This document shows positions 1,331 to 61,179 of a DNA stretch of 64,000 nt, in pieces. The stretch spans positions 130,971-194,970 of the forward strand of contig CAWDYA010000010.1 of NCBI GenBank assembly GCA_963806495.1, given 5' to 3'. The translations under genes and the position numbers were made by a program. The notes beneath the pieces are model-generated. The model ran no database searches. It saw only the letters and a program-made list of their open reading frames with translations, and was not told the origin of the DNA. Numbering within the stretch: the stretch's first letter is position 1; every line of letters begins with the position of its first letter. Source of the DNA: an uncultured Acidobacteriota bacterium (GTDB lineage Bacteria; Acidobacteriota; Polarisedimenticolia; JACPZX01; DASXTC01).

Positions 1331-1353
1331 CGTCCCAATCCTCTCCGCCCGGC

Positions 1354-2616: not shown

Positions 2617-2617
2617 C

Positions 2618-4899: not shown

Positions 4900-4910
4900 A
4901 GCGGACGCAT

Positions 4911-4919
4911 ATTCTAGCA
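4911..4919 (-). promoter_or_regulatory. candidate extended -10 element (TGcTAGAAT) for the helicase-MoxR-VWA-RNB operon, ~11 nt upstream of the ATG (short or near-leaderless mRNA)
   Basis: Reverse complement reads 'gtgcTAGAATatgcgtccgctATG'. An AT-rich hexamer is conspicuous in ~70% GC DNA. No convincing -35 element. Confidence 0.35.
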
Positions 4920-5056
4920 CACGCTCCCCGCGGCCGCGTAAAGCGTCGGATTCCTTTTGCGCGACCACCTTTTGTTGTACACTTCGTCAGGTCGAGTCGC
5001 TCCGCGGCGGAGGGGGGAGGAAGGCCCCCGCGCGGGCCGCCACCCCCGGGGTCACG

Positions 5057-6754: not shown

Positions 6755-6769
6755 GGGGGACGCCCCCCG

Positions 6770-45442: not shown

Positions 45443-45847
45443 GTGACAGCCACCGCGATTCTCGCAACCGGAACCGCAGGTATCTTCCTGCTGCTTCTCG
45501 TGGTGACCTGGTACCTCGTCCCCCTGCTCCAGCAGGCGCGACGGACCGCCAGCGCGATGGAAGAGCTGCTCACCACCACCCGGCCCAAGCTCGATGACGC
45601 GCTCGATCAGCTCCGATCGGTGCTCGCCCGCGCCGACGGCGTGATGGCGGCTGTGGAGCACGTGCCCGGCACGAGAGAAGACCTCGTCGGGGTGCTGTCG
45701 AAGGTCGCTGGCAGCTGGCAGGCCACCGCGCGCGCGGTGTCGACGATCACCGCGTTCTACACTGGTTTTTCCAGTCTCTGGAAGATTTTCACCCGTTCCA
45801 GGGCCCCCGAGGGGGCCAAACCCTCAACAGAAGAAGGAGGATCCTGA
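45443..45847 (+). CDS. DUF948-like membrane protein
   Basis: N-terminal TM (ILATGTAGIFLLLLVVTWYLV) followed by a helical domain; immediately upstream of a YtxH-like gene, a recurrent pairing. Confidence 0.45.
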   Translation: MTATAILATGTAGIFLLLLVVTWYLVPLLQQARRTASAMEELLTTTRPKLDDALDQLRSVLARADGVMAAVEHVPGTREDLVGVLSKVAGSWQATARAVSTITAFYTGFSSLWKIFTRSRAPEGAKPSTEEGGS

Positions 45848-46068
45848 TGAGCGATATCCGGACCGATGGGACGTCCCTTTTCGCATTCCTCGCCGGCGCC
45901 GTGATCGGTGTGGGCGTGGGCCTGCTCGTTGCGCCGAAGACCGGCTCCGAGACCAGGAAGCAGATCACCGATCTGGCGCACAAGGCTCAGGAGAAGGCCG
46001 GCGACATCAAGAACCGGCTGTCCCGCACCGCCTCGGACGTGGCCGAGGACGTCCGCAAGGGAGCCTGA
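45847..46068 (+). CDS. YtxH-like small membrane protein
   Basis: 73 aa, TM 'LFAFLAGAVIGVGVGLLVAP' then 'KTGSETRKQITDLAHKAQEKAGD' amphipathic tail. ATGA overlap with the previous gene. Confidence 0.45.
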   Translation: MSDIRTDGTSLFAFLAGAVIGVGVGLLVAPKTGSETRKQITDLAHKAQEKAGDIKNRLSRTASDVAEDVRKGA

Positions 46069-46083
46069 CCCCGGGCGAGGCCC

Positions 46084-48996
46084 TCACTCGGTGCCGGCTG
46101 CCAGCACCTGGGATACGAGGTCGTCGACATCCTCGAGCCGGAACGGCTTGGACAGATACGGGTTGCCCGTCTCCTGGAAGAACGCCTGCGTTCCGGGGTT
46201 GACCGTGTCGCCGGTGGAGAAGATCATCCGCCTCAGGAGGTGGGGCTTGAGCTCGCTGACCGCTTCATACAGCTTCTGGCCCCCCATGTCAGGCATCTTC
46301 AGATCGGAGATGATGACGTCGTAGTCGGTCTGGCGGATCTTGTCGAGCGCCTGCCTGCCGTTGCCCGCCGTTTCGACATGGTGTCCCGAGCCCTCGAGCA
46401 GCGCGAGCAGCAGTTCGAGAATCGTCTCCTCGTCGTCCACGACGAGAATGTGTTTTCCCTGCGATGTCGCCTCCCTGAGGGGCGAAGCGGGTTCTGCCGT
46501 CTGGGTCACAGCACTTCCCTCCTCCTGGGCTGGGAGATCCACGGTGAACGTGGCGCCTTCGCCGGGAACGCTCGATACATGGATCCGCCCATCGTGCTCC
46601 TGCACGATGCCGTATGACAGCGACAGACCCAGACCCGTACCGCGACCGATCTCCTTGGTCGTGAAGAACGGGTCGAAGATCTTGCCGAGTTTGTCCTGAG
46701 GGATGCCGGGGCCGTTGTCGACGAACTCGACGCGGACCCGCCCTCCCTCCTGCCGGGTCCTCACCATGAGGGAACCCGGCCTCTTCACTTCCATCAGCGC
46801 CTGATGGGCGTTGTTGATGATGTTCACGAACACCTGCTGCAGCAGATGCGGGTCGGCCAGAACCGGCGCGAGCTTCGGCTCGAGGTCCACCTTGAGCTCG
46901 ACGTTGTCGACCTTGAGCTGATAGGAGCGCAGGTCGATCGTGTTTCTGAGGATCTCGTTCGTGTCGACGAGCTTCCGCTCGGGGTGATGCCCCCGGGCGA
47001 ACCCCAGCAGGTTCTGCACGATCCTCTGGCATCGCGCCGCTTCGCGCTGGATCCTCTCGAGGTTCTGCTTGATCTCGGGCGACGCCTTCGACGCCATCAG
47101 GAGCTGCGCGAAGCCCATCACGCCGGTGAGCGGGTTGTTGAGCTCGTGCGCCACCCCGGAGATCATCTCGCCCAGAGCCGACAGCTTCTCCGCCTGGATG
47201 AGCTGTTCCTGCGCCGCCTGCAGCTGTTTCATCGAGTCACGCAGCTTCACGTTCGCCTCGAGCACCTCTTCGTGCATCCGGCGGCGCTCCTCCTCAGCCT
47301 TCTTGAGCTCGCGCAGATCGGTGACGATGCCGAAGGAGCCCTGGTTCTCCCCGCTCCTCAGATAGGGGGTGACCCCCATGAGCACCGGGATCCGGGAGCC
47401 GTCCTTCGTGAGGAGCATCATCTCGAAGCGCGCCTCACCCGCGGCCCGGCGGTGCCGGCTCCGCTTTCGGAATTCCTCGACCGACGCGGTCTCCATGATG
47501 GCGTCGAGCTGTCTGCCGACGAGATCCGATGCCCGGCAGCCGGTCAGCTCCAGCATCGCCGGGTTGACGAAGGCGATCTTCTCTTCGAGATCGACCGTGA
47601 AGAGGCCGTCGTTCATCGTCTCGACCAGGGTGCGTTGCCGCTCGTTGGTCTTCTTCACCTCCTGGTCGAGCTTTTTCTCCTCGATGGCGTGCGCCACCTG
47701 GTTGGCGAACAGCTCGAGCGGCGAGATACTCTCCGCCGAGGGCCTCCTGCCGTCCGCCGGGTCGTCCACCGAGACGATCCCGACGATCTTGCGGTTCGAG
47801 CCGAACAGCGGGATGAAGAGGAAGTCGTCGGGATGCCAGTCCACCATCCCGTCCTCACCCTTTGCGCTGCGCACCCCTTCGTAGTACCAGCCCTCGTCAT
47901 GAGGGATGTAGTACGAGTTGCCCAGGCGGAACCGCTCCTGGAAAATGGTGACCCGCTCGCGCGAGGTGAGCTTGTTCTGGTGGAACACCTCAATCTCTCT
48001 CTCGCTCAGCCCGGCGAAGTACCACTGGTACCCGCGAAACTCGTCGTCGCACAGGGTCAGGATCGCCCGGTTGAACGTGGAGACGTCCCGGATGGCATCG
48101 ACGAACATCTTGCATACGAGGTCCAGATCCTTCTCCTGGAGGATCATGCTGCTGACCCGGGAGAACTCCTTGAGCTGCTGGAGGCTCCGCTGGGCCCTCT
48201 CCTCCTGCCGCCTCACGGCCTGCATGCTCCGGCGCGTGTCGCTCACGTCGATCGCCACCCAGATCACGCCGACGGGACGCTCCAGGGCATCCCGCAACAG
48301 CGCGCCGTTGAACGACAGCACCCTGTGCGCGCGGCCCGAATCGACCGCCAGGTCGAGCTCCTCGACCACCTCTCCAGCCACCACCGCCTGGAGCGCCTTC
48401 GTCGCCTTGTCCCGGTCCGCCTCGACGATGAGGGTGGAGATGGCGTTGCGGCCCAGCACGTCGGACAGCTCGATGCCGACGGTCTCACGGAACCTGCGGT
48501 TGATCAGCGTGGCGCGCCCGTCCACGTCCACGGCGAGGATGCAGGCGTTCACCGTCTCGAGGAGGCCGCGCGAGAGCTGTCTCTCCCGGCGAAGGAGCTC
48601 CATCATCCGCTCCTTCTCGGTGACGTCGTGGATCAGGGCGAGAACGAGGCTGCCGGCCAGCGGCTCGAGATGGATCGACACGGGGCGCGACCCTGACGTG
48701 GAGGGCCGTGTCAGCGCGGTGTCGACGAGGCTGCTCCCCTCCTCACGCGCACGGCGCACGGCGTCCTCGAGGAGGCCGGCATCCTGGGCCTCCACGAGGT
48801 CGACGAGGTGGAGCTCGGTGAGGCGTTCAGGCGACTGGCCCGCGAGGATCCCCGCGGCCGCGTTCGCCTCGAGGATGATTCCGCTGACGGCGTCGAGCAG
48901 GACGAGGCCGTCGGAGGAGCAGCGAAGGAGCGCACGATAAAGCTGCGGGCCGCTTCTCTCGATGGCAGTCTTTTCCCCCTGCTCGTTCGGGTCCAT
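46084..48996 (-). CDS. multi-PAS hybrid sensor histidine kinase with C-terminal receiver domain
   Basis: Several PAS/GAF-like modules, H-box 'AHELNNPLTGV', N/G1/G2 boxes ('DNGPGI', 'GTGLGLS'), then REC 'ILVVDDEETILELL...DVIISDLKMPDMGG...KP'. 970 aa. Confidence 0.85.
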   Translation of the reverse strand: MDPNEQGEKTAIERSGPQLYRALLRCSSDGLVLLDAVSGIILEANAAAGILAGQSPERLTELHLVDLVEAQDAGLLEDAVRRAREEGSSLVDTALTRPSTSGSRPVSIHLEPLAGSLVLALIHDVTEKERMMELLRRERQLSRGLLETVNACILAVDVDGRATLINRRFRETVGIELSDVLGRNAISTLIVEADRDKATKALQAVVAGEVVEELDLAVDSGRAHRVLSFNGALLRDALERPVGVIWVAIDVSDTRRSMQAVRRQEERAQRSLQQLKEFSRVSSMILQEKDLDLVCKMFVDAIRDVSTFNRAILTLCDDEFRGYQWYFAGLSEREIEVFHQNKLTSRERVTIFQERFRLGNSYYIPHDEGWYYEGVRSAKGEDGMVDWHPDDFLFIPLFGSNRKIVGIVSVDDPADGRRPSAESISPLELFANQVAHAIEEKKLDQEVKKTNERQRTLVETMNDGLFTVDLEEKIAFVNPAMLELTGCRASDLVGRQLDAIMETASVEEFRKRSRHRRAAGEARFEMMLLTKDGSRIPVLMGVTPYLRSGENQGSFGIVTDLRELKKAEEERRRMHEEVLEANVKLRDSMKQLQAAQEQLIQAEKLSALGEMISGVAHELNNPLTGVMGFAQLLMASKASPEIKQNLERIQREAARCQRIVQNLLGFARGHHPERKLVDTNEILRNTIDLRSYQLKVDNVELKVDLEPKLAPVLADPHLLQQVFVNIINNAHQALMEVKRPGSLMVRTRQEGGRVRVEFVDNGPGIPQDKLGKIFDPFFTTKEIGRGTGLGLSLSYGIVQEHDGRIHVSSVPGEGATFTVDLPAQEEGSAVTQTAEPASPLREATSQGKHILVVDDEETILELLLALLEGSGHHVETAGNGRQALDKIRQTDYDVIISDLKMPDMGGQKLYEAVSELKPHLLRRMIFSTGDTVNPGTQAFFQETGNPYLSKPFRLEDVDDLVSQVLAAGTE

Positions 48997-49037
48997 CCGA
49001 TGGTCTCCCGCGCCCGGAGGCGGTTGAGCGGAGGTGC

Positions 49038-49616
49038 TTACTGGACGGTCTCGAGCAGTCTGGCGACCTCCTTGCGGAGGTTATCCTGCTGGACCGGCTT
49101 GGGAAGGCACAGATCGACGCCCACCTTGTAGGCACGCTCCATGGCTCCCTGCTCGGGCTGTCCGGCCAGGGCGACGACCTTGATCCCCACGGTATCCGGG
49201 TCGAGCTTGATGCGCTTGCATACATCGACCGCGTCCATGTTCGGGGCCATGATGTCCAGGATGATCAGGTCGGGTTTGAACGAGCCGATCTTGAGGCCGG
49301 CCTCGTACCCGTCGCGTGCGGACAGGATGCTGAAGACCGAGGCCTCCCCTCCGAGCGCGCGGGTGATGGCGTCGAGACCGCCCTGCTGGTCGTCGAGCAC
49401 GAGGATCTTCTTTCGCTCCTCGGAGAAGAACTCCGAGTCGACGGGCATGCCGTATCTTTCGAGAAATTCCTTGAAGTCGCTCTTGCGAATTCTGTAATGC
49501 CCGCCGGGGGTCGAGTAGGCGCGCAGCTTCTTGGCCTTGATCCACTTCACGACGCCGTCGTTGGTCACCTGGCAGTACGCGGCGACCTCGGAGGTGGTAA
49601 GGAGCCTGTCATTCAT
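49038..49616 (-). CDS. response regulator with N-terminal excisionase/MerR-type HTH (HTH_17) and C-terminal receiver
   Basis: 'LLTTSEVAAYCQVTNDGVVKWIKAKKLRAYSTPGGHYRIRKSDF' HTH, then REC 'ILVLDD...DLIILDIMAPNMDAV...KVVALAG'. 41 bp upstream of the hybrid kinase on the same strand. The 5' part of ORF-track entry 49038..50105 was discarded. Confidence 0.7.
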   Translation of the reverse strand: MNDRLLTTSEVAAYCQVTNDGVVKWIKAKKLRAYSTPGGHYRIRKSDFKEFLERYGMPVDSEFFSEERKKILVLDDQQGGLDAITRALGGEASVFSILSARDGYEAGLKIGSFKPDLIILDIMAPNMDAVDVCKRIKLDPDTVGIKVVALAGQPEQGAMERAYKVGVDLCLPKPVQQDNLRKEVARLLETVQ

Positions 49617-49911
49617 GGAGTTCCTGCCTCGCAGCGGACGCTCCTGATCACTCCGGCCCGCGAGAGCGTTCAGGATTCGTGGTTTTTGTGTAAATACCTG
49701 ATTTCCGGGCTGCGCAAATGTAGGGCTGGCCAACGAGGCAGTCAAACCGACAATACAGGAATATTCGGAACCTGCCGGCACTCCCGCGTGCTCACCCACA
49801 ACAGACCCGAAAATCGGACGATTCACTCTGGACCGCGGCCCGAATAACAGTAAATTGAAGAAAATACTGCACAGGTTCCACCCACTGAATTCATTCCCGG
49901 GGGGGCGTTTC

Positions 49912-50541
49912 ATGCGGCTGCTGAGCACCGTGATGGTAAAGCTCGCGTGCGGCCTGACCCTGGTTGCGGCGCTCGCACTCGGCGCCGTGCCGGCCGCCGC
50001 GTCGATCATGAGGTTCCTGCCTGTCGAGGAGTTGGCCCGGGCGTCGACCCGGGTGGTCAGGGCCAGGGTAACCGGCCGATCGGTCCACTGGACCGCCGAC
50101 CACAAGGGGATCTACACCGAGATCGACGTGGTGGTAGTCGGTCCGGCCATCAAGTGGCGGGGCGAGCCGGCCACGGCAGCCGCGGGCAGGCGTCTGACCA
50201 TCATCCAGGCGGGGGGCGTCATCGACGGCGTGTCGCTCGACTGGACGGGGCGCCCGACCTTCAGGAAGGGTGAGGATCTGGTGCTGTTTCTCGACGCGTA
50301 CGACGAGGGGAACCCCTCCGATGCCCGGTTGCTGGTGGTGGGGGGCAAGCAGGGGCGCATGAAGGTACTGCCCGATCCCGGCGGATCCGGCGCGCTGATG
50401 GTCGAGCGGGACCTCGCGGGGGTACTCGACGCCCCGTTCGTCGACTCGGGCACGCCCGATGCGGGCTCCCATAGGCGTGATCTGCTGAAACTGGACGACT
50501 TGCGGGCCCGGGTGCTCGCCACGCCGGGAGGCCCCCGATGA
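49912..50541 (+). CDS. hypothetical secreted protein, translationally coupled to the matrixin gene
   Basis: Signal peptide (MRLLSTVMVKLACGLTLVAALALGAVPAAAS), 209 aa. Its stop overlaps the ATG of the downstream metalloprotease (ATGA). Confidence 0.45.
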   Translation: MRLLSTVMVKLACGLTLVAALALGAVPAAASIMRFLPVEELARASTRVVRARVTGRSVHWTADHKGIYTEIDVVVVGPAIKWRGEPATAAAGRRLTIIQAGGVIDGVSLDWTGRPTFRKGEDLVLFLDAYDEGNPSDARLLVVGGKQGRMKVLPDPGGSGALMVERDLAGVLDAPFVDSGTPDAGSHRRDLLKLDDLRARVLATPGGPR

Positions 50542-52316
50542 GCCCGGCGACGCGGCGCCCCGTCCCGGCCCTGCTCCTGGCGGCCCTGCTCCTGGCGGTC
50601 CCTTCGGCCGCGTTCGGGTTCGTCCGCTCCACGCTGAGCGCAACCGACGCGACCCCCCTGAGATGGGATCTCGACGAGACGATGCTCCCGCTGTCGAACG
50701 TGCAGTCAGGCGAGATCGTCTGGGTCTTCGATGTGGCCGGTAGCAGCAACCTGCCGGGGCCGGAGGATGCCGAGGCGGTCCAGCGGGCCTTCGACCACTG
50801 GGAGGGGATCGGCAGCTCGCGCGTCGCCTTCGTGCGGGGCGCCGACCAGGATGTCCAGGCCGCCAACAACGACGGGATCAACGTGGTGTACTGGGCCGAG
50901 GGCGCGCACACGGTAATCGGCGGCACGAACACCAGCGTCACCGGGTTCGTCTCGCTGACGCCGGTGTTCAGCGTGGCGTCGGGCGCCAACAAGGGCCTCA
51001 TCATGGACGCCAACATCGTGCTCAACGGCCGTCAGGAAACCTGGACCGTCACCCCCGAAAGCGACGGTTTCTGGGATGTCGAGGCGGTAGTGACGCACGA
51101 GATCGGCCACTTCATCGGTCTGGATCACAGCCCGGTGCTCGGCTCGTCGATGGCGCCGCGGTTCCTCAGCGGCGAGTCCCGGATGCGGATGCTTCAGCTC
51201 GACGACATCCTCGGCGCGTCCACGATCTACCCCGACGGCGACTTCTCGACGGCGTACGGGGCCATCAACGGCAGCGTGGGACGTCCGGCCGGCGTGTTCG
51301 GCGCGCTGGTGACCGTGCTCGACAGCGGCGGCCGTGTGATCCAGGAATCGATCACGGCGGCCAACGGAGCCTACACGGCGCCCGGCCTCGCAAGCGACGA
51401 TTACGATGTCTACGTCGAGCCGGTCGACGCGACGCCGGCCTCCTCGACCAACCTGTTCGACGAAACCGACCTCGGAGGCGTGTACGGGGCCACGGTGGAT
51501 CCCAACTTCTTCGCCGCGCTCCCCCTGCTCACCACGGTCACCGCACCCGATTCGACGGTCCGGTCTTTCCTGGTCGGCGGCACCCCGCCCGCGATCAACA
51601 TCGCCAAGATCGGCGGCCGGGCCTCGACACTGGCCAGCCTCGTGTTCAGAACGGCCCCGACGTTTCTCGTGGCCGGAGACAGCGACGTCCTGCTCGGCTT
51701 CGCGGGGCCGAACCTCGATTCCTCCGTGGTCGTGGAGATCACCGGCCCCGGCATCACGGACAACGGCCTCGTCAGCACCGGCTCCGTGGACGGAGAGCCA
51801 TACGTCGTCCGGTCGTACACGGTCAGCCCGTCGGCACCGCAGGGGCTGCGCAGCGTGCGCATCAACGCGGGCGGCGCCGGCAGGACATACGCCACCGGTG
51901 CGATCCGGGTCTACCCGAACCTCGCGATGAACTTCGCCTCCCCGGGCGTCTTCTTCGCTGTGCCGGGCGAGGTGAACCGCGGACTCGGGCCCCAGATCCC
52001 GCTCACGCTGACCTTGAGCGGCAACGACGTGGACATGCTCTGGGACGACGAGCCGGGAGCGTACGGGTACAACGTCTACCGCGGCAGCCTGACCTCGCTC
52101 AAGGGGGGTATCTATGACCACGCGCCGATTCCCGGTGACGTCAACGGGCAGTGCCGTCTCACGACGCCATACACGGTTCTGAAGGGGGAGGCGCTCGATC
52201 CGTCGCCGGTCTACTACCTCGTGACGGCCTTCAACAATGTCGGCGAGGGGATCATCGGGCGTAACAGCTCCAACCAGCCGATCCCGGGCCCGGCGACACC
52301 CTGCCCGGTCCCCTGA
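50538..52316 (+). CDS. secreted matrixin-like (M10-type) zinc metalloprotease with a large C-terminal beta-rich domain
   Basis: Signal peptide and zinc motif 'HEIGHFIGLDHS' (HExxHxxGxxH) followed by a Met-turn region; ~350-aa C-terminal extension. Confidence 0.7.
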   Translation: MSPATRRPVPALLLAALLLAVPSAAFGFVRSTLSATDATPLRWDLDETMLPLSNVQSGEIVWVFDVAGSSNLPGPEDAEAVQRAFDHWEGIGSSRVAFVRGADQDVQAANNDGINVVYWAEGAHTVIGGTNTSVTGFVSLTPVFSVASGANKGLIMDANIVLNGRQETWTVTPESDGFWDVEAVVTHEIGHFIGLDHSPVLGSSMAPRFLSGESRMRMLQLDDILGASTIYPDGDFSTAYGAINGSVGRPAGVFGALVTVLDSGGRVIQESITAANGAYTAPGLASDDYDVYVEPVDATPASSTNLFDETDLGGVYGATVDPNFFAALPLLTTVTAPDSTVRSFLVGGTPPAINIAKIGGRASTLASLVFRTAPTFLVAGDSDVLLGFAGPNLDSSVVVEITGPGITDNGLVSTGSVDGEPYVVRSYTVSPSAPQGLRSVRINAGGAGRTYATGAIRVYPNLAMNFASPGVFFAVPGEVNRGLGPQIPLTLTLSGNDVDMLWDDEPGAYGYNVYRGSLTSLKGGIYDHAPIPGDVNGQCRLTTPYTVLKGEALDPSPVYYLVTAFNNVGEGIIGRNSSNQPIPGPATPCPVP

Positions 52317-52344
52317 TCGGGGCATCCCCCCCCCGGAGATCGCG

Positions 52345-52716
52345 TCAGGCGCCGTCGCCCGACCGTGGGATGATCCGATCCAGCTCCGCGCGCGGATATC
52401 CCTCGCGGGCGGGGTGTGGTGCCATGGTCACGAGGACCACACAGTCCTCGACCGCCTGGATGCGATGGAACCGGTTCGGCTCCAGAAGAACGATAGAGCC
52501 GGGCCGCGCGTCCTGGGGGACGCCGTCGGCGTAGAAGATCCCGCGCCCCTTCAGGAAGTGAGCGATCACCTGGCTGGACGACCGGTGGTCACGAACCGAC
52601 TGCCCCGCCCGCAGGCAGACCAGCATCACCCGGGCGTGTCCGGAGTCCGCCACGGGTCTCACGAGCGGCTTGTCCTCGTCGAACGCGACGAGCGAGTCAA
52701 TCTCGATCTGCAGCAT
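52345..52716 (-). CDS. cupin-domain protein
   Basis: 123 aa with a cupin-like two-motif core (G-x5-HxH-like 'RDHRSSSQVIAHFLKGRGIF...GSIVLLEPNRFHRIQA'). Confidence 0.5.
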   Translation of the reverse strand: MLQIEIDSLVAFDEDKPLVRPVADSGHARVMLVCLRAGQSVRDHRSSSQVIAHFLKGRGIFYADGVPQDARPGSIVLLEPNRFHRIQAVEDCVVLVTMAPHPAREGYPRAELDRIIPRSGDGA

Positions 52717-52852
52717 CCTCCGAGGCTACCAGACCCACCAGGAGGTTCGCCAGTCCCCCGGCCGGTGCAACCGGCAGCGTAGCTGTGCTAGGGTGAGTCG
52801 ACCGCACCCCGCGTCTCGCATCGTGAAGCGGGGGCGGCCCGGAGGCCAGCGC

Positions 52853-53065
52853 ATGAAGATAGTCGTGGACCGCGGCAAGTGCATTGCAGCCGCCAACTGC
52901 ATCGGGCTCGCCCCCCGCGTCTTCCGCCTCGATGGATCTCGCAAGGCGGTCGTGATCGGGACCGAAGGAACTGACGAGGCGACAATCATCGAAGCCGCGG
53001 AGGCCTGCCCCACGCAGGCGATCCAGCTGTTCGAGGACGGGTCGGGCGAGAAGCTCTTCCCGTAG
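52853..53065 (+). CDS. small single-cluster ferredoxin (3Fe-4S/4Fe-4S type)
   Basis: 'MKIVVDRGKCIAAANCIGLAP...EACPTQAI' (C-x5-C...CP). GGAGG Shine-Dalgarno 8 nt upstream; 70 aa. Confidence 0.7.
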   Translation: MKIVVDRGKCIAAANCIGLAPRVFRLDGSRKAVVIGTEGTDEATIIEAAEACPTQAIQLFEDGSGEKLFP

Positions 53066-53128
53066 TCGTGCGCGGCGCGCGTTGCGCACCGCGCCGCCCC
53101 TGTGGTATCGTTCGGCCCCTCATCGACA

Positions 53129-53205
53129 GGGCCCTTAGCTCAGCTGGATAGAGCGTCTGACTACGAATCAGAAGGTCGGGTGTTCGAATCACCCAGGGCC
53201 CACCA
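53129..53205 (+). tRNA. tRNA-Arg (anticodon ACG), CCA encoded
   Basis: Cloverleaf read by eye: acceptor GGGCCCT/AGGGCCC, D arm GCTC-AGCTGGAT-AGAGC, anticodon stem TCTGA/TCAGA with loop CTACGAA, T arm GGGTG-TTCGAAT-CACCC, discriminator A, then CCA. Confidence 0.85.
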
Positions 53206-53230
53206 GCACTCTTCCCGTGACGGCGGGGAC

Positions 53231-53814
53231 TTAGCCGTACAGCCTTCCGGCCGATTCCCTCGTTGTCACCAGGTTGTCACCACGAGGTTCGGCGGGAGCG
53301 TCCAGGCTGTTCACGGCCGCCTTGTTCTCCATCGGCAGCCATCGGCCGTAGGTGTCCACCGTGAGTTGGATGGACGGGTGGCCGAGTTGCCGTTGCACGT
53401 AGGAGGGACTCACGCCGCTCTGCAGCAGGATGCTGGCGAACGAGTGGCGCAGGCAGTGAGGGTGGAGAAGTGCGCGGGCAGCTTGGCGGGCCTCAGGAGG
53501 GCCCTGAGAGCCTTGCCGACGGCGCTACGGTCCAACGGTGTGCCCGCCTCCGTGAAGAAGATCCACTCCGGTAGTTCTCCCCACCCGCGTTCGAGCATGG
53601 TGGCCATACAGGAGACCCGGTGTTTTTGCAGCATGTCGCGCAGGGCGGCGCTCATGTCCACCCGGCGTGACTTCCCGCTCTTGGGGGTCCCCTCCAGGCC
53701 ATCGGTAATCGACCGCTCCACCCGGACCTCCCGGCGTTCCATGTCGATGTCGGCCCACTCGAGTCCTATCGCCTCCCCCAGCCTCGTGCCGGTCCGGGCC
53801 ATCAGGAAGAACAA
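53231..53814 (-). pseudogene. tyrosine recombinase/phage-type integrase, C-terminal catalytic domain only (N-terminal ~200 aa deleted) with one internal frameshift near 53445
   Basis: 'LMARTGTRLGEAIGLEWADIDMERREVRV' (start of the catalytic domain) in 53410..53814. '...HCLRHSFASILLQSGVSPSYVQRQLGHPSIQLTVDTYGRWL' (R-H-R-Y region with catalytic Tyr) is spread over a -1 frame and ORF 53231..53413. Only 146 bp remain upstream, too short for the N-terminal domain. Confidence 0.8.
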
Positions 53815-53961
53815 GGGGTCTCACTCAGTACCCGCCCAACACCTGAGCTGACCGGGCGGCGGCAGAGGCGTCGATTATGGATTCCGCGCCCATCCGCCGC
53901 TCCGGTTGAGCGACCTGCTAGCTGGCCTGACGAATCCCAAACCTCAGGCCGATTCATTGTG

Positions 53962-55371
53962 CTAGGGCACTTGCTTCACCGCCGGAGGGTTCCATTTGCC
54001 GGTGAGGGCATCGGGCTTCGGGGCGTAGAGACGCATGGTCAGGTTGAACAGCTCTTTGGGCGCGGGAAGCCAATTGGCTTCCAGATCCTTGCCGGGACTT
54101 TCGTTCTGGAAATACAGATCGAGCGAACCATCGGCATTGGTCTTGAACGGCATGTAACTGCTAAGCGCGAAGCGATTCAGCGCGTTGCCGACCTGGAAGC
54201 CCTCTCCGTCATAGAGCGTGATCGACCAGAAGGCGTTCACGGGCGGTGTTGCGCCCTTGGCGAAGTGAATGGTGTACTTGTTCGCGCCACTCAGCGGCTT
54301 GCCGGCTTCATCGCCGAGGTTCAGCGGATAGATCGCATCCTCGGGGAGATTCGCGCCAAGGCCCAGCTGGGTGACGATGGCACGCTTGAGGTAGTAGTTG
54401 CCGTACACGCCCATCGTGTCGGTATTCATCGACCAGCCGTTGGCGACCCGGGCCACCGTCGGCAGTTTCCACGCCATGAGTTTCTGGCCTTCAGCCGGGG
54501 CGGCTTCGAGGGCGCCTCGAATCACCGTGTCAACGTTCTTGATATCGAAACTCTTGCCAGGTTCGATTCCAAGGCGCTTCATCTGCGCAATGATCGGCTG
54601 GTCGGTGACATGAGGCGGATTCAGTTTCATCAGTTCCGCTGCATAGGCGAAGTACTTATCCGCGGGCATGGTGTCGACCTGGGTCTTGGGCGGGGTCTTC
54701 ATGTCCACACTCGGATCGATCTTTACAGTCATCTGGGCGGGCGGCTTGCCCCAACTCGAGAGCGGGGTGATTTTGTAGCCCGCCTGGATCTTATTAACAG
54801 CAGGGTAATCGGCGGAGCCGTCGGTCTTGGTGCGGCCGATTACCCAGACATATGGTGTCGGTGCGGGAATGTGCGAGAAGCCGCTCGGCACCTCGCCCGT
54901 CCAGCCGGGAGGCGTGACAAGGAAGTTACCGGCCTGAGTGCCGGTGGTTCGCCAACCCGGCGAAGCGAAAACGTCAGTCCACATGTCGAGCATGGGCAGC
55001 AGGTAGTACCGGCCATCGGTATCCGGTGCGGAGACGATCAGCGGTTCCTTCGTCAGGTCCAACCAGGCGACGGAATAGAGCGTGTCGAAGTTGACACGCA
55101 CGACGATTTTCAGATCGGCAGGCGGGTACTCCGGGACGCTGACGAACATGTTCATCGGTGCCTTGCCGAGCTCTTTGCCGGGTTCAACGTTCGTGCTTTG
55201 CAGACGGGTAATGTCCATCGACACCAGCGGGTAGAAGTAGATATAGGCGTCCACGGCGATGGCACGCGCCTCCGCTGCGCCGACCTTGTCTTGGGCGTGA
55301 GCCTGGATCTGTGGAAGCGCAAGCAGCGCCATGATGCACCCAAACGCGATGAGTCTCGTGCGTTTCATCAT
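53962..55371 (-). CDS. secreted DUF1254/DUF1214-domain protein (island cargo)
   Basis: Signal peptide (MMKRTRLIAFGCIMALLALPQIQAHA). 469 aa with DUF1254-like N-half ('YIYFYPLVSMD...NFDTLYSVAWLDL') and DUF1214-like C-half ('NAFWSITLYD'). GC by eye ~58-60% with many AAA/GAA/AAG codons, unlike neighbouring genes. Confidence 0.7.
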   Translation of the reverse strand: MMKRTRLIAFGCIMALLALPQIQAHAQDKVGAAEARAIAVDAYIYFYPLVSMDITRLQSTNVEPGKELGKAPMNMFVSVPEYPPADLKIVVRVNFDTLYSVAWLDLTKEPLIVSAPDTDGRYYLLPMLDMWTDVFASPGWRTTGTQAGNFLVTPPGWTGEVPSGFSHIPAPTPYVWVIGRTKTDGSADYPAVNKIQAGYKITPLSSWGKPPAQMTVKIDPSVDMKTPPKTQVDTMPADKYFAYAAELMKLNPPHVTDQPIIAQMKRLGIEPGKSFDIKNVDTVIRGALEAAPAEGQKLMAWKLPTVARVANGWSMNTDTMGVYGNYYLKRAIVTQLGLGANLPEDAIYPLNLGDEAGKPLSGANKYTIHFAKGATPPVNAFWSITLYDGEGFQVGNALNRFALSSYMPFKTNADGSLDLYFQNESPGKDLEANWLPAPKELFNLTMRLYAPKPDALTGKWNPPAVKQVP

Positions 55372-55884
55372 CTTGTGTCTCCTTTGGTATTGAATCGGAT
55401 GAAAAACTGGGGAGCTAACGCTGAGCGTAGCCGGCGGCGGGTGAGTATGCGGACGACGTCCGCGCCGAGCCCGACGGCCCGCCGGCAGGTTGACGCTGCA
55501 GTTAGAATGGTGCTCGACCTACAGGTGGCGCCCACCGGAGCCACCGACCTGCCCTCAAGCATACGCCCGAAGGCGGCAGCCCGGAAGGGTCGTTGGTACG
55601 CCGGTCCCTCGGTGTTTACCTGCAGGTGCCAACCCCAGAGCCACGGCCTGGCCCTTCCCTATCCCTATGAGACACGCACCCGCCAGCCAAGGTGGCCCAC
55701 CAACGTGATGCCGTTTCCGTGAAATCGGCACGAGGATCACCACGGCAGACGACATGATGAAAGAACAAAGAAGGAAGACACGATTGGTTCTTGAGGCTAC
55801 ATTCTAACTAGAACCTATCTCAAAATCAATTCGACAATCGATCTCCTGATGCGGTATCATGACGCGCGCTGCTTCAGTTGAGCG

Positions 55885-56502
55885 TTGAGCGACGAACACT
55901 GGGAACGGATCAGGGAGCACTTCCCTGAAGAGAACATTCCTGACGGCCGCCCTGGCCGAAAGCCGATCCCGACACGCAGCGTGCTCGAGGCGGTTCTCTG
56001 GATCCTGAACACCGGCGCCCAGTGGCACATGCTCCCGCAGTGCTACCCGAGCTACAAGACCGTTCATCGCCACTTCCAGAACTGGTGTCGCAACGAAGTT
56101 CTTCGCTCCGTCCTGACCGACCTCGCCAACGGGTTGCGCGATGAGGGAGTCATCGACGAGCGCGAGAGCTTCATCGACGCGACGTTCGCCTCGGCGAAGG
56201 GCGGCGGTGAAGGCATCGGCCCCACGAAACGCGGCAAGGGCGTGAAGATCATGGGGATCGTCGATCGTCATGGTTTGCCTCTGGTGGTCAGTACGCACGC
56301 GGCGAATCATCATGAAGTCACGCTGGTCCAGCTGACGTTTGACTTCTACATGATCGAGGCCAGGCCTGAGACACTGATCGGCGATCGGGCGTACGACAGC
56401 GACAAGCTCAATACTCTCCCTCCAGTTTCGTGGGTCGCCAGTTCCCCAAGGAGATCGGACACGGTTGCGCCTACCTCTCACCACGCTGTCACCCTGGGGT
56501 AG
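55885..56502 (+). pseudogene. IS5-family transposase fragment (DUF4096 N-domain + DDE up to the second Asp; C-terminal ~45% missing)
   Basis: 'HWERIREHFPEE...GRPGRKPIPTRSVLEAVLWILNTGAQWHMLP' (IS5 N-terminal domain), 'LIGDRAYDSDKL' (DDE region). No frame downstream continues the expected '...IAPHRSNR...' region. Confidence 0.7.
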
Positions 56503-56576
56503 AAGATCAGGCAGGAGCCGTCCTGTAACTCATTGAAATAAAAGGGGCGGTCCCTGCTCTCGTGTCGCGCAGCGAC

Positions 56577-56621
56577 CTGCGAATCAGAAGGTCGGGTGTC
56601 CGAATCACCCAGGGGCCACCA
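56577..56621 (+). repeat. direct repeat of the tRNA-Arg 3' half (attR-like) marking the distal island boundary
   Basis: 'ctgcgaatcagaaggtcgggtgtccgaatcacccaggggccacca' versus tRNA 'ctacgaatcagaaggtcgggtgttcgaatcacccagggcccacca' (3 mismatches). No matching 5' half, so it is not a second tRNA. Confidence 0.7.
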
Positions 56622-57117
56622 CCACCCACCCGTGCCGGGGGCCTGGTTCGCCCATGAGGCGACCCGGCCTGTTTCCCAGGAGCTCCCCGGGCCCGGGCAG
56701 GCTCCGAACGCATGAAAGGGTCTCTGCCGCGCTGCGGTCCGCGAATTCCTGCCATGATTCACCGGGGACCCGCCTCGTTATCCACGTATACACTTCGCCA
56801 CCTCTGCGGCTTTGCCGGGCCAGGGGTTGCCAGTCCCCGAACTCGGAGGTAGCCCACCAGATCTCCCCGCCGAGAATCGCCAGCTCGCGATGGGAGAGTT
56901 CCTTGATGAGTCGGGGTACCTGCCTCCGGGGCCAGCCGAACCTACCGGAAGACGATCGGACTGCCGTACGTGCGATTGCGTCCAACGTCATGCCGTACTC
57001 GCTGGCGAACGTTGGCGTTTGGTGGGAACCGCGGCGGCCGAAAGCACGGAGGGAGTCCGCGCCGCGCCCGAACGCGCGCCGTCGGGTTGAGGCTGCGGTT
57101 CGGCAGAGAGTGGGACG

Positions 57118-57714
57118 TTATGGTTTGCCCGATTCAACTGCCAATCGCAGGTCATTGAATGAATTTGCCGGGAACCCATGCTGAACCCACTCCTTCTGAC
57201 AGCCTTCGATGCCCCGTCTTCTCTCGAGATCCTCGAGGCCTCGCGGGAGGGTAGGGCAGAATTCCTGCGTCGAGCAGGACCCGCTGAGCAGGACCTTGCC
57301 CTCATGATCCGGGCGTTGACAATCCATGCCGGGAAATTCGAGCAGGTGCAAATCGAGAACGCCCGGACGGAGTTGCTCGAACACCCAGCGATACTCCCGC
57401 GGCTCCTCGATGGACGAGGCACGCTCGGAGCCCGCGTCCCTGGAAAGCCGGACCGCGGCCGACACCAGGTCACCCAGCGCGTCTGAGACATGTGAGGCGG
57501 TCACGGTCACCTCCTGTCCGCCCGGCGAAAGCGTGCAGACCGCCCATCCGACACCGTCGAGTTCATACCTGATCCGGACCTCCAGGTTCGCCTCGTGATC
57601 ATCTCCGCGGGAGTTGGAATCCAAAGGACCCGGAGTCCACCGGGCGGATGGGTTGGCTCGCCCGCAAGAGACACAACGCCCGAGGTGACCCTCCTCGAAC
57701 GTCTCCACGGGCAA
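57118..57714 (-). CDS. hypothetical protein (coding strand uncertain; a 102-aa ORF overlaps on the + strand)
   Basis: 198-aa ORF with TTG start, GC3 ~78%, varied composition (MPVETFEEGHLGRCVSCGR...EFPGMDCQRPDHEGKV...). No recognisable domain; lies between the island attR and the Kelch gene. Confidence 0.3.
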   Translation of the reverse strand: MPVETFEEGHLGRCVSCGRANPSARWTPGPLDSNSRGDDHEANLEVRIRYELDGVGWAVCTLSPGGQEVTVTASHVSDALGDLVSAAVRLSRDAGSERASSIEEPREYRWVFEQLRPGVLDLHLLEFPGMDCQRPDHEGKVLLSGSCSTQEFCPTLPRGLEDLERRRGIEGCQKEWVQHGFPANSFNDLRLAVESGKP

Positions 57715-57743
57715 CCCGGCATGAATGTCATGGCGCTGCGGGC

Positions 57744-60700
57744 CTACGGGCAGGCCGGGATGTCCGCATCGGCGGCAGGCGGGCCCCAGGTAGCCGTCCC
57801 GCAGTCGTTGCGCGCGCGGGCGAGGTACCAGAAGACCTCACCGGGCGCGGGAGCGGCCCGGCCATCGTCGTACCAGGCGGACCCGCCGGCCACCAGGCAG
57901 GTCCCGCTCGTGAAGTCCAGCGCCGCCGAGGCCACCAGGGTGCCCGAGAACAGATCGTACGTGGTTGCCGGCCCCGCGATCAGATCCTGCGCGTCCCAGG
58001 AGAGCGGCGTGGGCGTCGTCACTTCGAGGGTCATGCCCGACACCTCGTCCGGCTCGTGCCATACGGTCGGGTCGCCATCGTCGCAGTCATCGCCGCCGCA
58101 GAGCCCGTCGGGGTGCGTATCGGCATCGTCGTCTCTCGCATTCCCCGGAGCGCAGATGCCCGACGCGCACATGTCGGCGACAGTGCAGGCATCGCCGTCC
58201 GAGCACGCCGTCCCGTCCGGGACGACCGGATTGACACAGCCGCGCGCTGCGCCGCAGACATCCGACGTGCAGTCGTCTCCGTCCGAGCAGTACAAGGCCG
58301 CCCCGTCGTCCTGGATCCCGTCGCAGTCGTCGTCGATCCCGTTGCACACCTCCGTCGCGCCAGGATGGACGTCCCATCGCGCGTCGTTGCAATCACCGTC
58401 GCACGGCGTCCAGCCGTCCCCATCCGTGTCCGCGTAAACATCGGGGAAGAAAAGGGCGTCGCCGACCCCCATCGCGGAGCCGGTCCAGATGGCGTGGCCG
58501 GTGGCGGGAGGCGCGGCATCGGACGACACACCCATCCAGCTGCCACTGCCCGGAGAATACCGCCCGCCCTGCCCCGGGCCGTCGTAGACGATCATCGAGC
58601 TGCCGGTCCAGACCGCCGTGTGCCCGGACATCGCCGGCGGCGGCGTTCCCGCCGTGCCGAGCGCCTGCCAGGTGTCACCGGGCGGGCTGTAGCTCGCGCC
58701 GTCCGACAGCGGCGAGCAGTACGGGCCGCCGCTGCAGACACCGCCACCCCAGACGATCATCCGGGAACCGGTCCAGACCGCGGTGTGCATGTACCGGTCG
58801 CTCGGAGCGTTGGTCGCCGAGATCGGCGACCAGGTGTTGGTGGCCGGGTAATAGGCGGCGCCGTCGTTCAGGGTCGGATAGCCGAGGGGGATGTCGCCCG
58901 AGACGCCTCCCCAGATGATCATCCGCGTGCCGGTCCAGACAGCCGAGTGGTACGCACGGGGCATGAGACCGCTGGCGGCGATCGGGCTCCAGGAGTTTGT
59001 CTCCGGGTCGAACGAATAGCCGTCATCGAGAGCGAGGTAATCGCTGCCGTACCACCCGCCCCATACGATCATCCGCGTGCCGGTCCAGACTGCGGTGTGC
59101 CCCTCGCGCGTGACCGGCGCTCCCATCTGTGAGATGGCCGTCCAGGAATCGGTGACCGGGTCGTAGATGCCGCCCATGCCGGCCCCCGGATAGTCTGTAA
59201 TGCTGCCACCCCACACGATCATCTTCGAGCCCGTCCAGATCGACGTGTAGTCCCTCAGAAACGGCGGTGCTCCCATCGAGGAGATTGGCGTCGAGGTGCC
59301 GGTCGCCGGATCGTAGGTGAACCCTCCCCCCGTGTACGGAGACCAGGAGATCGAGAGACTGCCCGTCCAGACCTGTCCGAAGCCCTTGACCGGGTAAGAG
59401 AAGATCGTCGTCCACGACCCGCCGCCCGGGTCGTACCTGCCGCCGTCAGCCAGCACCGTGCCGTGGTCGAGCCCACCCCAGATCAGGAGCCGGGAGCCGG
59501 TCCACACGGCATCCGGGAGCCTGCGCGACGACGGCGCCCCCATCGCCGTCAGGGAGGACCAGGAATCCATCGCGGGATCGTACCGGTAGCCGTCGTTCGT
59601 TTCACCGCCGACGACAAGGCTGCCGCCCCAGACGACCAGCGCGTCGTCGATCCACGCTACCGCGGGATCGTATCGCGCCGCCGGGGCTCCATCGAGCGAG
59701 ATCGCGGCCCAATCGTCGGTCGCCGGACGATAACGCGCTCCCGTGTTGACCCTCGTCGTCGTGGTGGTACCTCCGTACACGATCATCTCGGTTCCGCTCC
59801 AGACGGCGGCGTGCTGCCTGCGTGCATCGGGCGCGTCGACGCTCGTCATCGGCTCCCAGGTGTCCATAACCGGGTCGTACCGGGCGCCATCGTCGCTCAG
59901 GCCGGACTGCGTGCTGCCTCCCCAGACGATCATCCGACTGCCGGTCCAGACCGCGGAGTGCTGGGACCTGGGTGAGGGCGCGCCTGTCGTCGAAACGGGA
60001 GACCAGGTGTCCGAGACCGGATCGTAGCCGGCACCGGTGTCGAGCCGGGTCGGGCTGGAATAGCCTCCCCAGACGATCATCCGCGTGCCGGTCCAGACTG
60101 CTGTCGCCTCCATCCGGCCTGCCGGGGCCCCCGACAGGCTCGTCGGCGCCCAGGTATCGGTCACAGGGTCGTAGACCCCACCCGTGTCGAAGAGATCCGA
60201 CGTGTATTGGCCGTAGCCGCCCCACACGATCATGCGGTCTCCGGTCCACACCGCCAGTGGGTACCGCCGGGCTGCAGGCGCATCGACGTCGCTGATCGGG
60301 AACCAGGCGTCGATGACCGGATCGTAACGGCCGCCCGTGCCGAGAGGGCCGTTGGTATCCGTCCCGCCCCACACGATCATCTGCGACCCGGTCCAGACCA
60401 CGGCCGCGCCGTAGCGTGGCGAGGGGACGTTGTCGAACCCGACCGGGGCCCAGACCCCTTCCGTCGAGCAGCCCGCGAGGGGCGAGGCGGACGAGCCGGC
60501 CGGCTCGGGCAGATGCATCGGTTCGGCGACGGTTGGCACCGTGTCCCCGTCGAACCGGTCCCGGGCGGCACGCCACCATCGATCCCATCCGACCGGAGTT
60601 GCCCCGGGGCGCGGGGACGTACCATCCGGCGGGTCGGAGACGAACTTCTCACGCAGCAGCCGTTGTGCGAGCGCGGGACGGGCGAGGCATTCCTGTATCA

Positions 60701-61058
60701 GGATCGGATCGTCGTCCAACGCATGGTAGATCTCGCGCAGGCGATCCGGCATGCGCGTCTGCGAGGCCATCCTCTCGACCTCGGCGCGCAGCATCTGCGG
60801 CGTGATCGTGACGTGCCAGACCGCCTCGAGGGCCGCGCTCTTCTCCAGATAGGACCGGACCCTGGCTTCGAGGACTGCTGAGGGGATCGGGTACCGGGCC
60901 GTGTCCTGAGCCGCCGCGTCATGCGCCTGGTAGACGTTTTCAATCGCACGCTGGGCGTCGACCCGTTGCCGGAAGGTGATCTCGGGTGTGTCGCCCGCCG
61001 CGCCCATCAGAATCGGCAACGTACATCCGATCAGTACCGCGGTGACCTGTCGATTCAT
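57744..61058 (-). CDS. giant secreted Kelch-repeat protein (~14 blades, two beta-propellers) with C-terminal MopE-like Cys/Asp-rich putative metal-binding repeats
   Basis: Signal peptide (MNRQVTAVLIGCTLPILMGAAG), ~200-aa helical N-domain, then ~14 repeats of '[ST]AVWTG[ST]RMIVWGG...DG.RYDP..D.W' (Kelch/galactose-oxidase-like). Followed by 'DTDGDGWTPCDGDCNDARWDVHPGATEVCNGIDDDCDG' and two further Cys-rich repeats. Start position +-1 nt uncertain; the ORF track extends to 61109. Confidence 0.8.
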   Translation of the reverse strand: MNRQVTAVLIGCTLPILMGAAGDTPEITFRQRVDAQRAIENVYQAHDAAAQDTARYPIPSAVLEARVRSYLEKSAALEAVWHVTITPQMLRAEVERMASQTRMPDRLREIYHALDDDPILIQECLARPALAQRLLREKFVSDPPDGTSPRPGATPVGWDRWWRAARDRFDGDTVPTVAEPMHLPEPAGSSASPLAGCSTEGVWAPVGFDNVPSPRYGAAVVWTGSQMIVWGGTDTNGPLGTGGRYDPVIDAWFPISDVDAPAARRYPLAVWTGDRMIVWGGYGQYTSDLFDTGGVYDPVTDTWAPTSLSGAPAGRMEATAVWTGTRMIVWGGYSSPTRLDTGAGYDPVSDTWSPVSTTGAPSPRSQHSAVWTGSRMIVWGGSTQSGLSDDGARYDPVMDTWEPMTSVDAPDARRQHAAVWSGTEMIVYGGTTTTTRVNTGARYRPATDDWAAISLDGAPAARYDPAVAWIDDALVVWGGSLVVGGETNDGYRYDPAMDSWSSLTAMGAPSSRRLPDAVWTGSRLLIWGGLDHGTVLADGGRYDPGGGSWTTIFSYPVKGFGQVWTGSLSISWSPYTGGGFTYDPATGTSTPISSMGAPPFLRDYTSIWTGSKMIVWGGSITDYPGAGMGGIYDPVTDSWTAISQMGAPVTREGHTAVWTGTRMIVWGGWYGSDYLALDDGYSFDPETNSWSPIAASGLMPRAYHSAVWTGTRMIIWGGVSGDIPLGYPTLNDGAAYYPATNTWSPISATNAPSDRYMHTAVWTGSRMIVWGGGVCSGGPYCSPLSDGASYSPPGDTWQALGTAGTPPPAMSGHTAVWTGSSMIVYDGPGQGGRYSPGSGSWMGVSSDAAPPATGHAIWTGSAMGVGDALFFPDVYADTDGDGWTPCDGDCNDARWDVHPGATEVCNGIDDDCDGIQDDGAALYCSDGDDCTSDVCGAARGCVNPVVPDGTACSDGDACTVADMCASGICAPGNARDDDADTHPDGLCGGDDCDDGDPTVWHEPDEVSGMTLEVTTPTPLSWDAQDLIAGPATTYDLFSGTLVASAALDFTSGTCLVAGGSAWYDDGRAAPAPGEVFWYLARARNDCGTATWGPPAADADIPACP

Positions 61059-61179
61059 GCCATCCCTCCTCGTCGGTCGGCCGCGACGGGGTCGGGTGGG
61101 GGGATTCAATCGGGCTACGGACAGAATACGCCGTTTTCATCGCCCAGGCACGGAAAAATGTCGGATGAGGAGAGGAGGC

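Follow-up and report, generated by a model that had tools for sequence, protein, structure and literature searches.

A DUF1254/DUF1214 gene cassette in a two-attC cluster within a decayed tRNA-Arg island of an Acidobacteriota genome

Three kinds of described systems bear on the locus reported here. CALINs (attC clusters in which an integron integrase is lacking) hold cassettes without a neighboring integron integrase gene, intI (Cury et al., 2016; PMC4889954). Genomic attG sites (GWT), isolated cassettes (SALINs) and imprecise excisions that delete neighboring DNA have also been described (bioRxiv 10.1101/2022.09.11.507474), and islands targeted to tRNA genes by phage-type integrases form the third kind. 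Here, we describe a locus that shares features with all three, in a 64-kb stretch of DNA from an uncultured Acidobacteriota bacterium (contig CAWDYA010000010.1; the whole stretch is called the window, and positions are counted from its first nucleotide). It is a decayed island at a tRNA-Arg(ACG) gene, and inside it lies an intact gene for a DUF1254/DUF1214 protein that we identify, from its boundaries and its occurrence elsewhere, as an integron gene cassette. An earlier reading of the same DNA by a model, hereafter the original prediction, had proposed an eroded integrative island with this gene as its cargo, and all the features that it listed were found at or near where it had placed them, with small corrections.

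The resemblance to each described system is partial. As in CALINs, one strand carries two attC sites, each preceded by a cassette, with no detectable intI in the vicinity and an insertion sequence (IS) next to them; unlike CALINs, the attC cluster lies in a decayed tRNA island of an Acidobacteriota genome, its distal attC abuts the pseudogene of a non-integron tyrosine integrase, and conserved triplets are altered in each of its attC sites (PMC4889954). The locus is like attG insertions and SALINs in the G|TT junction downstream of the window attC and in the occurrence of the cassette with a lone attC at other loci (L003-L006), but differs from them in that the event is one we infer, the junction on the upstream side has been destroyed, the cassettes number two and no source of IntI was identified (bioRxiv 10.1101/2022.09.11.507474). 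With tRNA-targeted islands it shares the tRNA gene and the repeat of its 3' part, the adjoining integrase, the atypical composition and a relative with an empty site, whereas only ~3.4 kb is left, with an integrase pseudogene and an interior that consists of cassettes and an IS fragment in place of an island backbone. The component types are all already known, and the main point added to the original prediction is the cargo as a widely travelling cassette in a small CALIN. Overall, we consider it likely that the locus is a layered and now immobile mobile-DNA hotspot, in which a tRNA island holds a CALIN, the attC-integrase junction was formed by integron-type recombination, and an IS5 insertion and a deletion came on top.

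The DUF1254/DUF1214 gene as an integron gene cassette

A protein search for homologues of the DUF1254/DUF1214 protein returned thousands of sequences, with 19 clusters at ≥90% identity, and the genomic contexts were fetched and compared as DNA. The window from 55419 to 53838 is common to five other genome backgrounds at 93–96% nucleotide identity, with flanking guanine-plus-cytosine (GC) contents of 40% (L002), 49% (L001), 54% (L007-L010), 57% (L014) and 64% (L003-L006 and L015), against 68% in the window. One of these, L001, is CP024202.1, which is listed in a paper among methanotroph genomes. Some 590 other members of the DUF family, from metagenomes, are only 75–78% identical and only in the mature coding region. 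The horizontal acquisition that had been proposed for the gene is borne out by this distribution, and the lower GC content and unusual codon usage also held up on calculation gene by gene. The GC content is 59.7% against 68.2 ± 2.7% in 34 neighboring genes (z −3.2), and at third codon positions (GC3) it is 76.6% against 87.5 ± 3.5% (z −3.1), i.e., ~8.5 points lower overall and 11 points lower at third positions. AAA makes up 30% of lysine codons compared with 10%, and GAA 56% of glutamate codons compared with 15%, a three- to four-fold rise.

The edges of the shared segment are sharp. Homology starts at window position 55419 (in L001, at 55426) and its other end lies at 53838, 53919 or 53934; directly beyond G|TTAGCT the upstream flanks diverge in each of the six backgrounds, and the 3' flanks of the window, L002 and L003 diverge after ...CTCAGG(C/T)G|TT. 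In L001 and L007, 3' divergence begins just past a conserved AGCTAAC (AGCTAAA in L007) and a different hairpin then follows, while the shared 3' sequence of L014 stops a few bases before the AGCTAAC point with no attC directly after it. Different attC bodies can be seen behind the same open reading frame (ORF) in L001 (11449-11505), L007 (~11449-11510) and L014 (9439-9707), the last of these ~180 bp after the shared sequence. Comparison of these genomes suggests that the attC behind the DUF ORF has been replaced.

The attC site itself has the expected architecture. R'' reads AGCTAAC in L002 and L003, the exact complement of the 5' core GTTAGCT of the cassette, and AGCTAGC in the window copy. 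It is followed by a 5-nt spacer, by L'' (GCTCAAC), which pairs with GTT-AGC and has one extra base, by a GC-rich stem with a second bulge, by a 6-nt spacer and by R' (GTT...). Alignment inspection places one extrahelical base in L'' and another in CGG-A-GCGGCGG against CCGCCGC-CCG, which would be G and T on the bottom strand. In the consensus fold CTAAC pairs with GTTAG and AAC with GTT, i.e., R'' with R' and L'' with L', and the spacers are unpaired; compensatory changes occur in 10 of the 18 pairs when eight attC sites from other loci are aligned. A leave-out covariance model built without window sequences (R2) finds the DUF attC as its best match in the window (62.3 bits, E 1.7e-16). Against L002, this site differs at 8 of 84 positions, including private changes in two conserved triplets (AAC to AGC and GTT to GTC), compared with 3.7% over the whole cassette. 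The faster divergence of the attC beside an intact gene fits a loss of mobility with the gene retained.

The surroundings of the other copies range from an integron to a single cassette. L002 has the DUF cassette in first position, with a divergently oriented integron integrase 129 bp upstream (TIGR02249, 302.9 bits; cutoff 265), and in L001 and L014 the cassette belongs to arrays whose attC sites were found by covariance model. In L003-L006 and L015 (e.g., L003 9950-11534) it occurs by itself with one attC, and neither a further attC nor an integrase was found within 10 kb; its flanks in L003 (...AACCAAG|TT and G|TTACGG) are those expected of a SALIN that arose by insertion at a genomic GWT site. 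With an attC palindrome, extrahelical bases, G|TT boundaries and occurrence inside integrons, these comparisons establish at the sequence level that the DUF1254/DUF1214 gene is an integron gene cassette circulating between unrelated bacteria. The view of the gene as generic island cargo, held in the original prediction, has to give way to a cassette that has an attC of its own and is bounded precisely at G|TT.

A second cassette, which we call cassette B, was overlooked in that prediction. Its attC site (attC B) takes up the 95 nt that precede the DUF cassette and folds as DNA like the DUF attC, with CTAAC pairing with GTTAG. The leave-out model finds it with exact ends as the second-best match on both strands of the 64 kb (18 bits, E 0.0046), the third having an E of 0.5. 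In cassette B, the 5' core (GTTAGAA, 55808..55802) and R'' (TTCTAAC, 55507..55501) are exact reverse complements of each other. Its 66-aa (amino acid) ORF has no match in Pfam, PADLOC or PHROG, and the cassette is similar to none of the 96 fetched loci. A tblastn search with the L002 IntI (E ≤ 0.01) detected no integron integrase in the window; neither intI nor attI completes an integron here, and upstream of cassette B lies an IS5 fragment. Since one strand carries two attC sites at a distance of 1.58 kb with no integron integrase detected in the window, the interior of the island is a two-cassette CALIN by the published definition. A third attC-like stretch, on the minus strand at 57104..57004, shares 74% identity with attC B across 70 nt, and its cores resemble R'' (GCCGAAC) and R' (GTTCGCC). 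Two hidden Markov models and two covariance models did not detect it on the cassette strand, and it may represent either an attC in decay or a match by chance.

The tRNA-Arg island and its remnants

The features of the island are collected in Table 1. The tRNA-targeted, decayed element proposed in the original prediction is supported by the repeat, the integrase remnant, the composition and a relative with an empty site. A direct repeat of the 3' half of the tRNA gene is present as claimed, its length being 49 nt (45 of them identical) and not 45 bp, and it has no further copy in the window (blastn-short, E 2e-14; runner-up E ~1). The stretch from 53206 to 56576 has an atypical GC content of 61.1%.

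Table 1. Features of the island at tRNA-Arg(ACG), in window coordinates.
Feature	Position	Strand	Details
tRNA-Arg(ACG), integration target	53129..53205	+	ARAGORN; Rfam RF00005, 69.9 bits
attL repeat copy (tRNA 3' half + 4 nt)	53161..53209		find_repeats family D2
Tyrosine integrase pseudogene, catalytic domain only	53231..53817	-	Pfam PF00589, E 4.7e-13, profile positions 28-127
Junction, 21 nt, attC crossover point to start of integrase homology	53818..53838	-	Origin ambiguous
attC of DUF cassette	53834..53923	-	R'' AGCTAGC, L'' GCTCAAC, L' GGTCAGC, R' GTTGGGC
Gene cassette with DUF gene, 1580 bp	53839..55418	-	93–96% nucleotide identity to L002, L001, L003-L006/L015, L007-L010, L014
DUF1254/DUF1214 gene, intact, 469 aa	53962..55371	-	Pfam E 5e-50 and 3.9e-33; ribosome-binding site GGAG
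attC B	55413..55507	-	R'' TTCTAAC ... R' GTTAGCT; covariance model R2
Cassette B, 389 bp, without recognizable gene	55419..55807	-	5' core GTTAGAA compared with own R''
IS5-family fragment	55812..56502	+	Transposase ORF 55885-56502; right end absent
Spacer, 74 bp, IS fragment to attR	56503..56576		
attR repeat copy of tRNA 3' half	56577..56625		Right flank to 56641 matches L012 downstream of tRNA

Relatives of the flank were found through a protein search with its M10 peptidase, for which there is one 89% relative (L012) and one 80% relative (L013), the remoter ones carrying the labels Candidatus Polarisedimenticolia or Acidobacteriota. A contig search with the same peptidase returned only a 46% relative on a 3.7-kb contig without the tRNA gene. 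The position of the tRNA-Arg gene after a ferredoxin gene is conserved in L012 and L013; in L094 the tRNA-Arg is also present, with a CBS-domain gene between it and the ferredoxin gene. L012, the closest relative found (86.6% nucleotide identity over 7.4 kb), aligns with its positions 23-7456 to window 45776-53228 and is collinear until 23 nt beyond the tRNA, and its positions 7389-7454 also align, at 86%, to the attR copy and its flank at 56577-56641. Since L012 passes from the tRNA straight to the attR-side flank, the insertion in the window is real, and by this alignment L012 is the empty site for window 53229-56576. The insertion adds ~3.35 kb relative to it. The check that could have refuted the original prediction came out in favor of an island, and the GC difference persisted. 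With a tRNA at one end, a repeat of its 3' part at the other, an adjacent tyrosine integrase and an empty relative, the locus has what characterizes a tRNA island. In L013, ~57 bp beside the tRNA-Arg (L013 4288-4348) resemble the 3' end of an integrase, and this remnant means that the site was used repeatedly or long ago.

The adjacent integrase lacks its N-terminal part and is frameshifted, as had been noticed. In a tblastn search with 12 full-length homologues, homology runs from 53817 to 53464 and then, in another frame, from 53461 to 53297, which places the frameshift near 53462. By alignment, ~90–115 residues of the N-terminus are gone, out of ~280–330 in the homologues, and the same search did not find them elsewhere in the window. 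The stop of the pseudogene is 26 nt from the end of the tRNA. Homologues P0161, P0160, P0165 and P0173 have annotated ORFs that extend into an antisense tRNA, with C-terminal tails like RTRDLLITNQLLY, and another (L095, 10001-10977) overlaps a tRNA-Thr(CGT); judged by these gene positions, the integrase family is tRNA-adjacent. An assignment as integron integrase was ruled out, with TIGR02249 giving only 16.5 bits against the cutoff of 265.

At the other side of the island, the transposase belongs to the IS5 family (NCBIfam IS5_3, NF033580, 140.6 bits; also Pfam DUF4096 and DDE_Tnp_1) and is truncated at its 3' end as described before, matching profile positions 5-205 of 258, so that ~80% is present and ~53 C-terminal aa are gone. 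It resembles the IS5 family (NF033580) in its DUF4096 and DDE transposase and its left inverted repeat, and differs in the loss of the right end and of those ~53 aa. The left inverted repeat, GAACCTATCTCAAAATC, is preserved in full (55812-55828); it agrees with an IS end of Leptospira weilii at 15 of 17 positions and has a TA flank. A complete IS would have a DDE transposase, two inverted repeats and a target duplication, and here only the left repeat is found; there is no second copy of the element in the window, and the fragment and the 74-bp spacer behind it are similar to none of the 96 fetched loci. The left end lies 2 nt upstream of the core site of cassette B, which the original prediction had not noticed. 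On the minus strand at 55829..55801, a promoter-like hybrid site combines a −35 TTGATT in the IS5 left end with a −10 TAGAAT in the start of cassette B. It points into the cassettes and matches at 9 of 12 positions, but such sites are not enriched compared with shuffled sequence and it is only a hint.

Proposed history and competing explanations

We propose that the locus was built in layers. The sequence shows that an element with a tRNA-targeting tyrosine integrase entered the 3' end of the tRNA gene and duplicated at least 49 nt, and that a CALIN of two cassettes, cassette B and the DUF cassette, now fills the island. The most economical cause of the attC-integrase junction would be an IntI acting in trans that recombined the DUF attC with a secondary GWT (attG) site located within the integrase gene or next to it, either by inserting a cassette into that gene or by deleting the DNA from attC to the attG site, and in both cases this would have removed the N-terminus of the integrase and helped the island to become fixed. 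An IS5 element inserted at a TA 2 nt upstream of the cassette B core, a site that can still be read, and a later deletion may have taken the 3' end of the IS together with upstream DNA (cassettes, attI/intI or the integrase N-terminus). The integrase also carries a frameshift and the window attC has mutations in conserved AAC/GTT triplets, and the DUF gene itself is intact.

The proximity of the DUF attC to the integrase remnant, also missed before, carries the recombination step. Between the core G of the attC (53839) and the first position with integrase homology (53817) there are 21 nt, and the sequence after the G (TTGGGC) fits the GWT consensus of attG sites. A crossover point this close to the integrase homology points to integron-type recombination and not to random erosion. 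Several observations weigh on the other side. The 21 nt before clear integrase homology hold an in-frame TGA and are of uncertain homology to the integrase, and the junction may lie outside integrase sequence altogether; no integron integrase that could catalyze the recombination is found in the 64-kb window; the IS and the deletion destroyed the upstream side, which leaves insertion, deletion and integron remnant indistinguishable there; the independent model support for attC B is moderate (18 bits, E 0.0046, with rough calibration); and the contig is a metagenome assembly.

It is possible, though in our view less likely, that the island once carried a complete integron from which the IS5 insertion and a deletion removed intI, attI and the upstream cassettes, so that the last two were left, and that the truncation of the integrase is an unrelated deletion. 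The array runs from high to low coordinates, so intI and attI would be expected exactly where the IS5 fragment and the deletion are, the IS lies 2 nt from the core in what would be the spacer of an upstream attC or of attI, and IS elements and rearrangements are a recognized source of CALINs (PMC4889954). However, tblastn finds no intI pseudogene in the window, most CALINs do not lie near intI remnants (PMC4889954), and it is left unexplained why the crossover of the last attC and the beginning of the integrase homology are no more than 21 nt apart. The history put forward in the original prediction, with the DUF gene as ordinary island cargo, the truncations as random erosion and no integron recombination, accounts for the real island features and for the atypical 53206-56576 stretch; we regard it as very improbable, since a DUF module with exact cassette boundaries and an attC is common to five other contexts, including a complete integron, and the same strand has another attC 1.58 kb upstream. 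Hardly credible is a chimera in which the metagenome assembler joined a cassette region into an Acidobacteriota contig. The contig is indeed metagenome-assembled and the cassette occurs in many co-occurring organisms, yet the window copy differs by 3.7–6.6% from every other copy with private changes that reach into the attC, a diverged tRNA repeat and an integrase remnant flank the region as is typical of a real insertion, and an assembler would not collapse the two copies of the 49-nt repeat, which differ from each other at 4 positions.

A layered hotspot of the kind favored here has several implications. The DUF cassette is a concrete, dated-by-divergence case of cassette spread outside clinical integrons, in a phylum with little-described integron biology. 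The question shifts from the donor lineage of the gene to why a secreted protein stays intact while travelling as a cassette among very different environmental bacteria. The attC-integrase junction also suggests cross-talk between two recombination systems, in which integron recombination disrupts the integrase of another element. A broader claim, that cassettes colonize and inactivate the integrase genes of other elements through attC × attG recombination and so lock islands, and that the DUF cassette is among the most widely spread non-resistance cassettes, crossing phyla (Acidobacteriota, a gammaproteobacterial methanotroph and lineages of 40–64% GC) through a general fitness benefit of its secreted product, is one that we put forward as speculation and think unlikely.

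The encoded protein and the flanking variable segment

The N-terminus of the DUF1254/DUF1214 protein, MMKRTRLIAFGCIMALLALPQIQAHA|QD, resembles by inspection a Sec signal peptide, and the protein is probably secreted or periplasmic. Across the six cassette copies, dN/dS (the ratio of nonsynonymous to synonymous divergence) is 0.19–0.36 with dS 0.06–0.23, and the window copy is full length with 9 private amino acid changes, comparable to the other copies. Comparing the copies together, these rates demonstrate purifying selection on the coding sequence. No PADLOC, PHROG or NCBIfam family was assigned to the protein. Its AlphaFold model is poor (mean predicted local distance difference test score 59, predicted template modeling score 0.59), and a Foldseek search of that model against the PDB retrieved uncharacterized proteins only. 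The two Vibrio parahaemolyticus proteins VPA0106 (3U07) and VPA0735 (2P3Y and 3VB9) are built from the same two domains (profile E 1.4e-32 and 1.7e-17), but at ~20–24% identity, and they are structural-genomics entries without assigned function, from which no function can be transferred; our literature search found no functional study of DUF1254/DUF1214 proteins. Our best guess is that the product acts as an accessory factor, in the periplasm or secreted, and is retained because it brings a benefit in some niche; with hundreds of soil homologues of the family and three matching crystal-structure entries, the cassette is a well-defined candidate for functional work on it. In L007-L010 (e.g., L007 2333-11410), three DUF1254/DUF1214 paralogues, the third of which is the cassette copy, lie on the same strand with patatin, DUF3313 and Ysc84 genes, a context that may hint at a lipid- or envelope-related role.

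To the right of the repeat, the segment between attR and the stop of a Kelch-repeat gene (56642-57743) is a second one that varies among relatives, so the hotspot extends beyond the island limits of the original prediction. None of the 96 fetched loci resembles the stretch 56626-57743. At the equivalent position, after the attR-side flank, L012 has an unrelated 686 bp with an ORF for a 133-aa membrane protein, and returns to the window at the Kelch-repeat gene stop. The window segment holds an ORF at 57714..57118 with a GC3 of 0.71 (z −4.7), and residues ~45–195 of its product match a family of ~150-aa proteins (695 matches, E ≤ 1e-3) for which no Pfam, PADLOC or PHROG family was found. The Kelch-repeat gene itself (57744-61109, minus strand) encodes a 1121-aa protein with many Kelch repeats and a MopE-type cysteine-rich metal-binding motif. 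This 3.4-kb gene is present in L012 and absent from L013, where the sequence jumps from beside the tRNA-Arg to a homologue (L013 4478-4581) of window 61192-61295.

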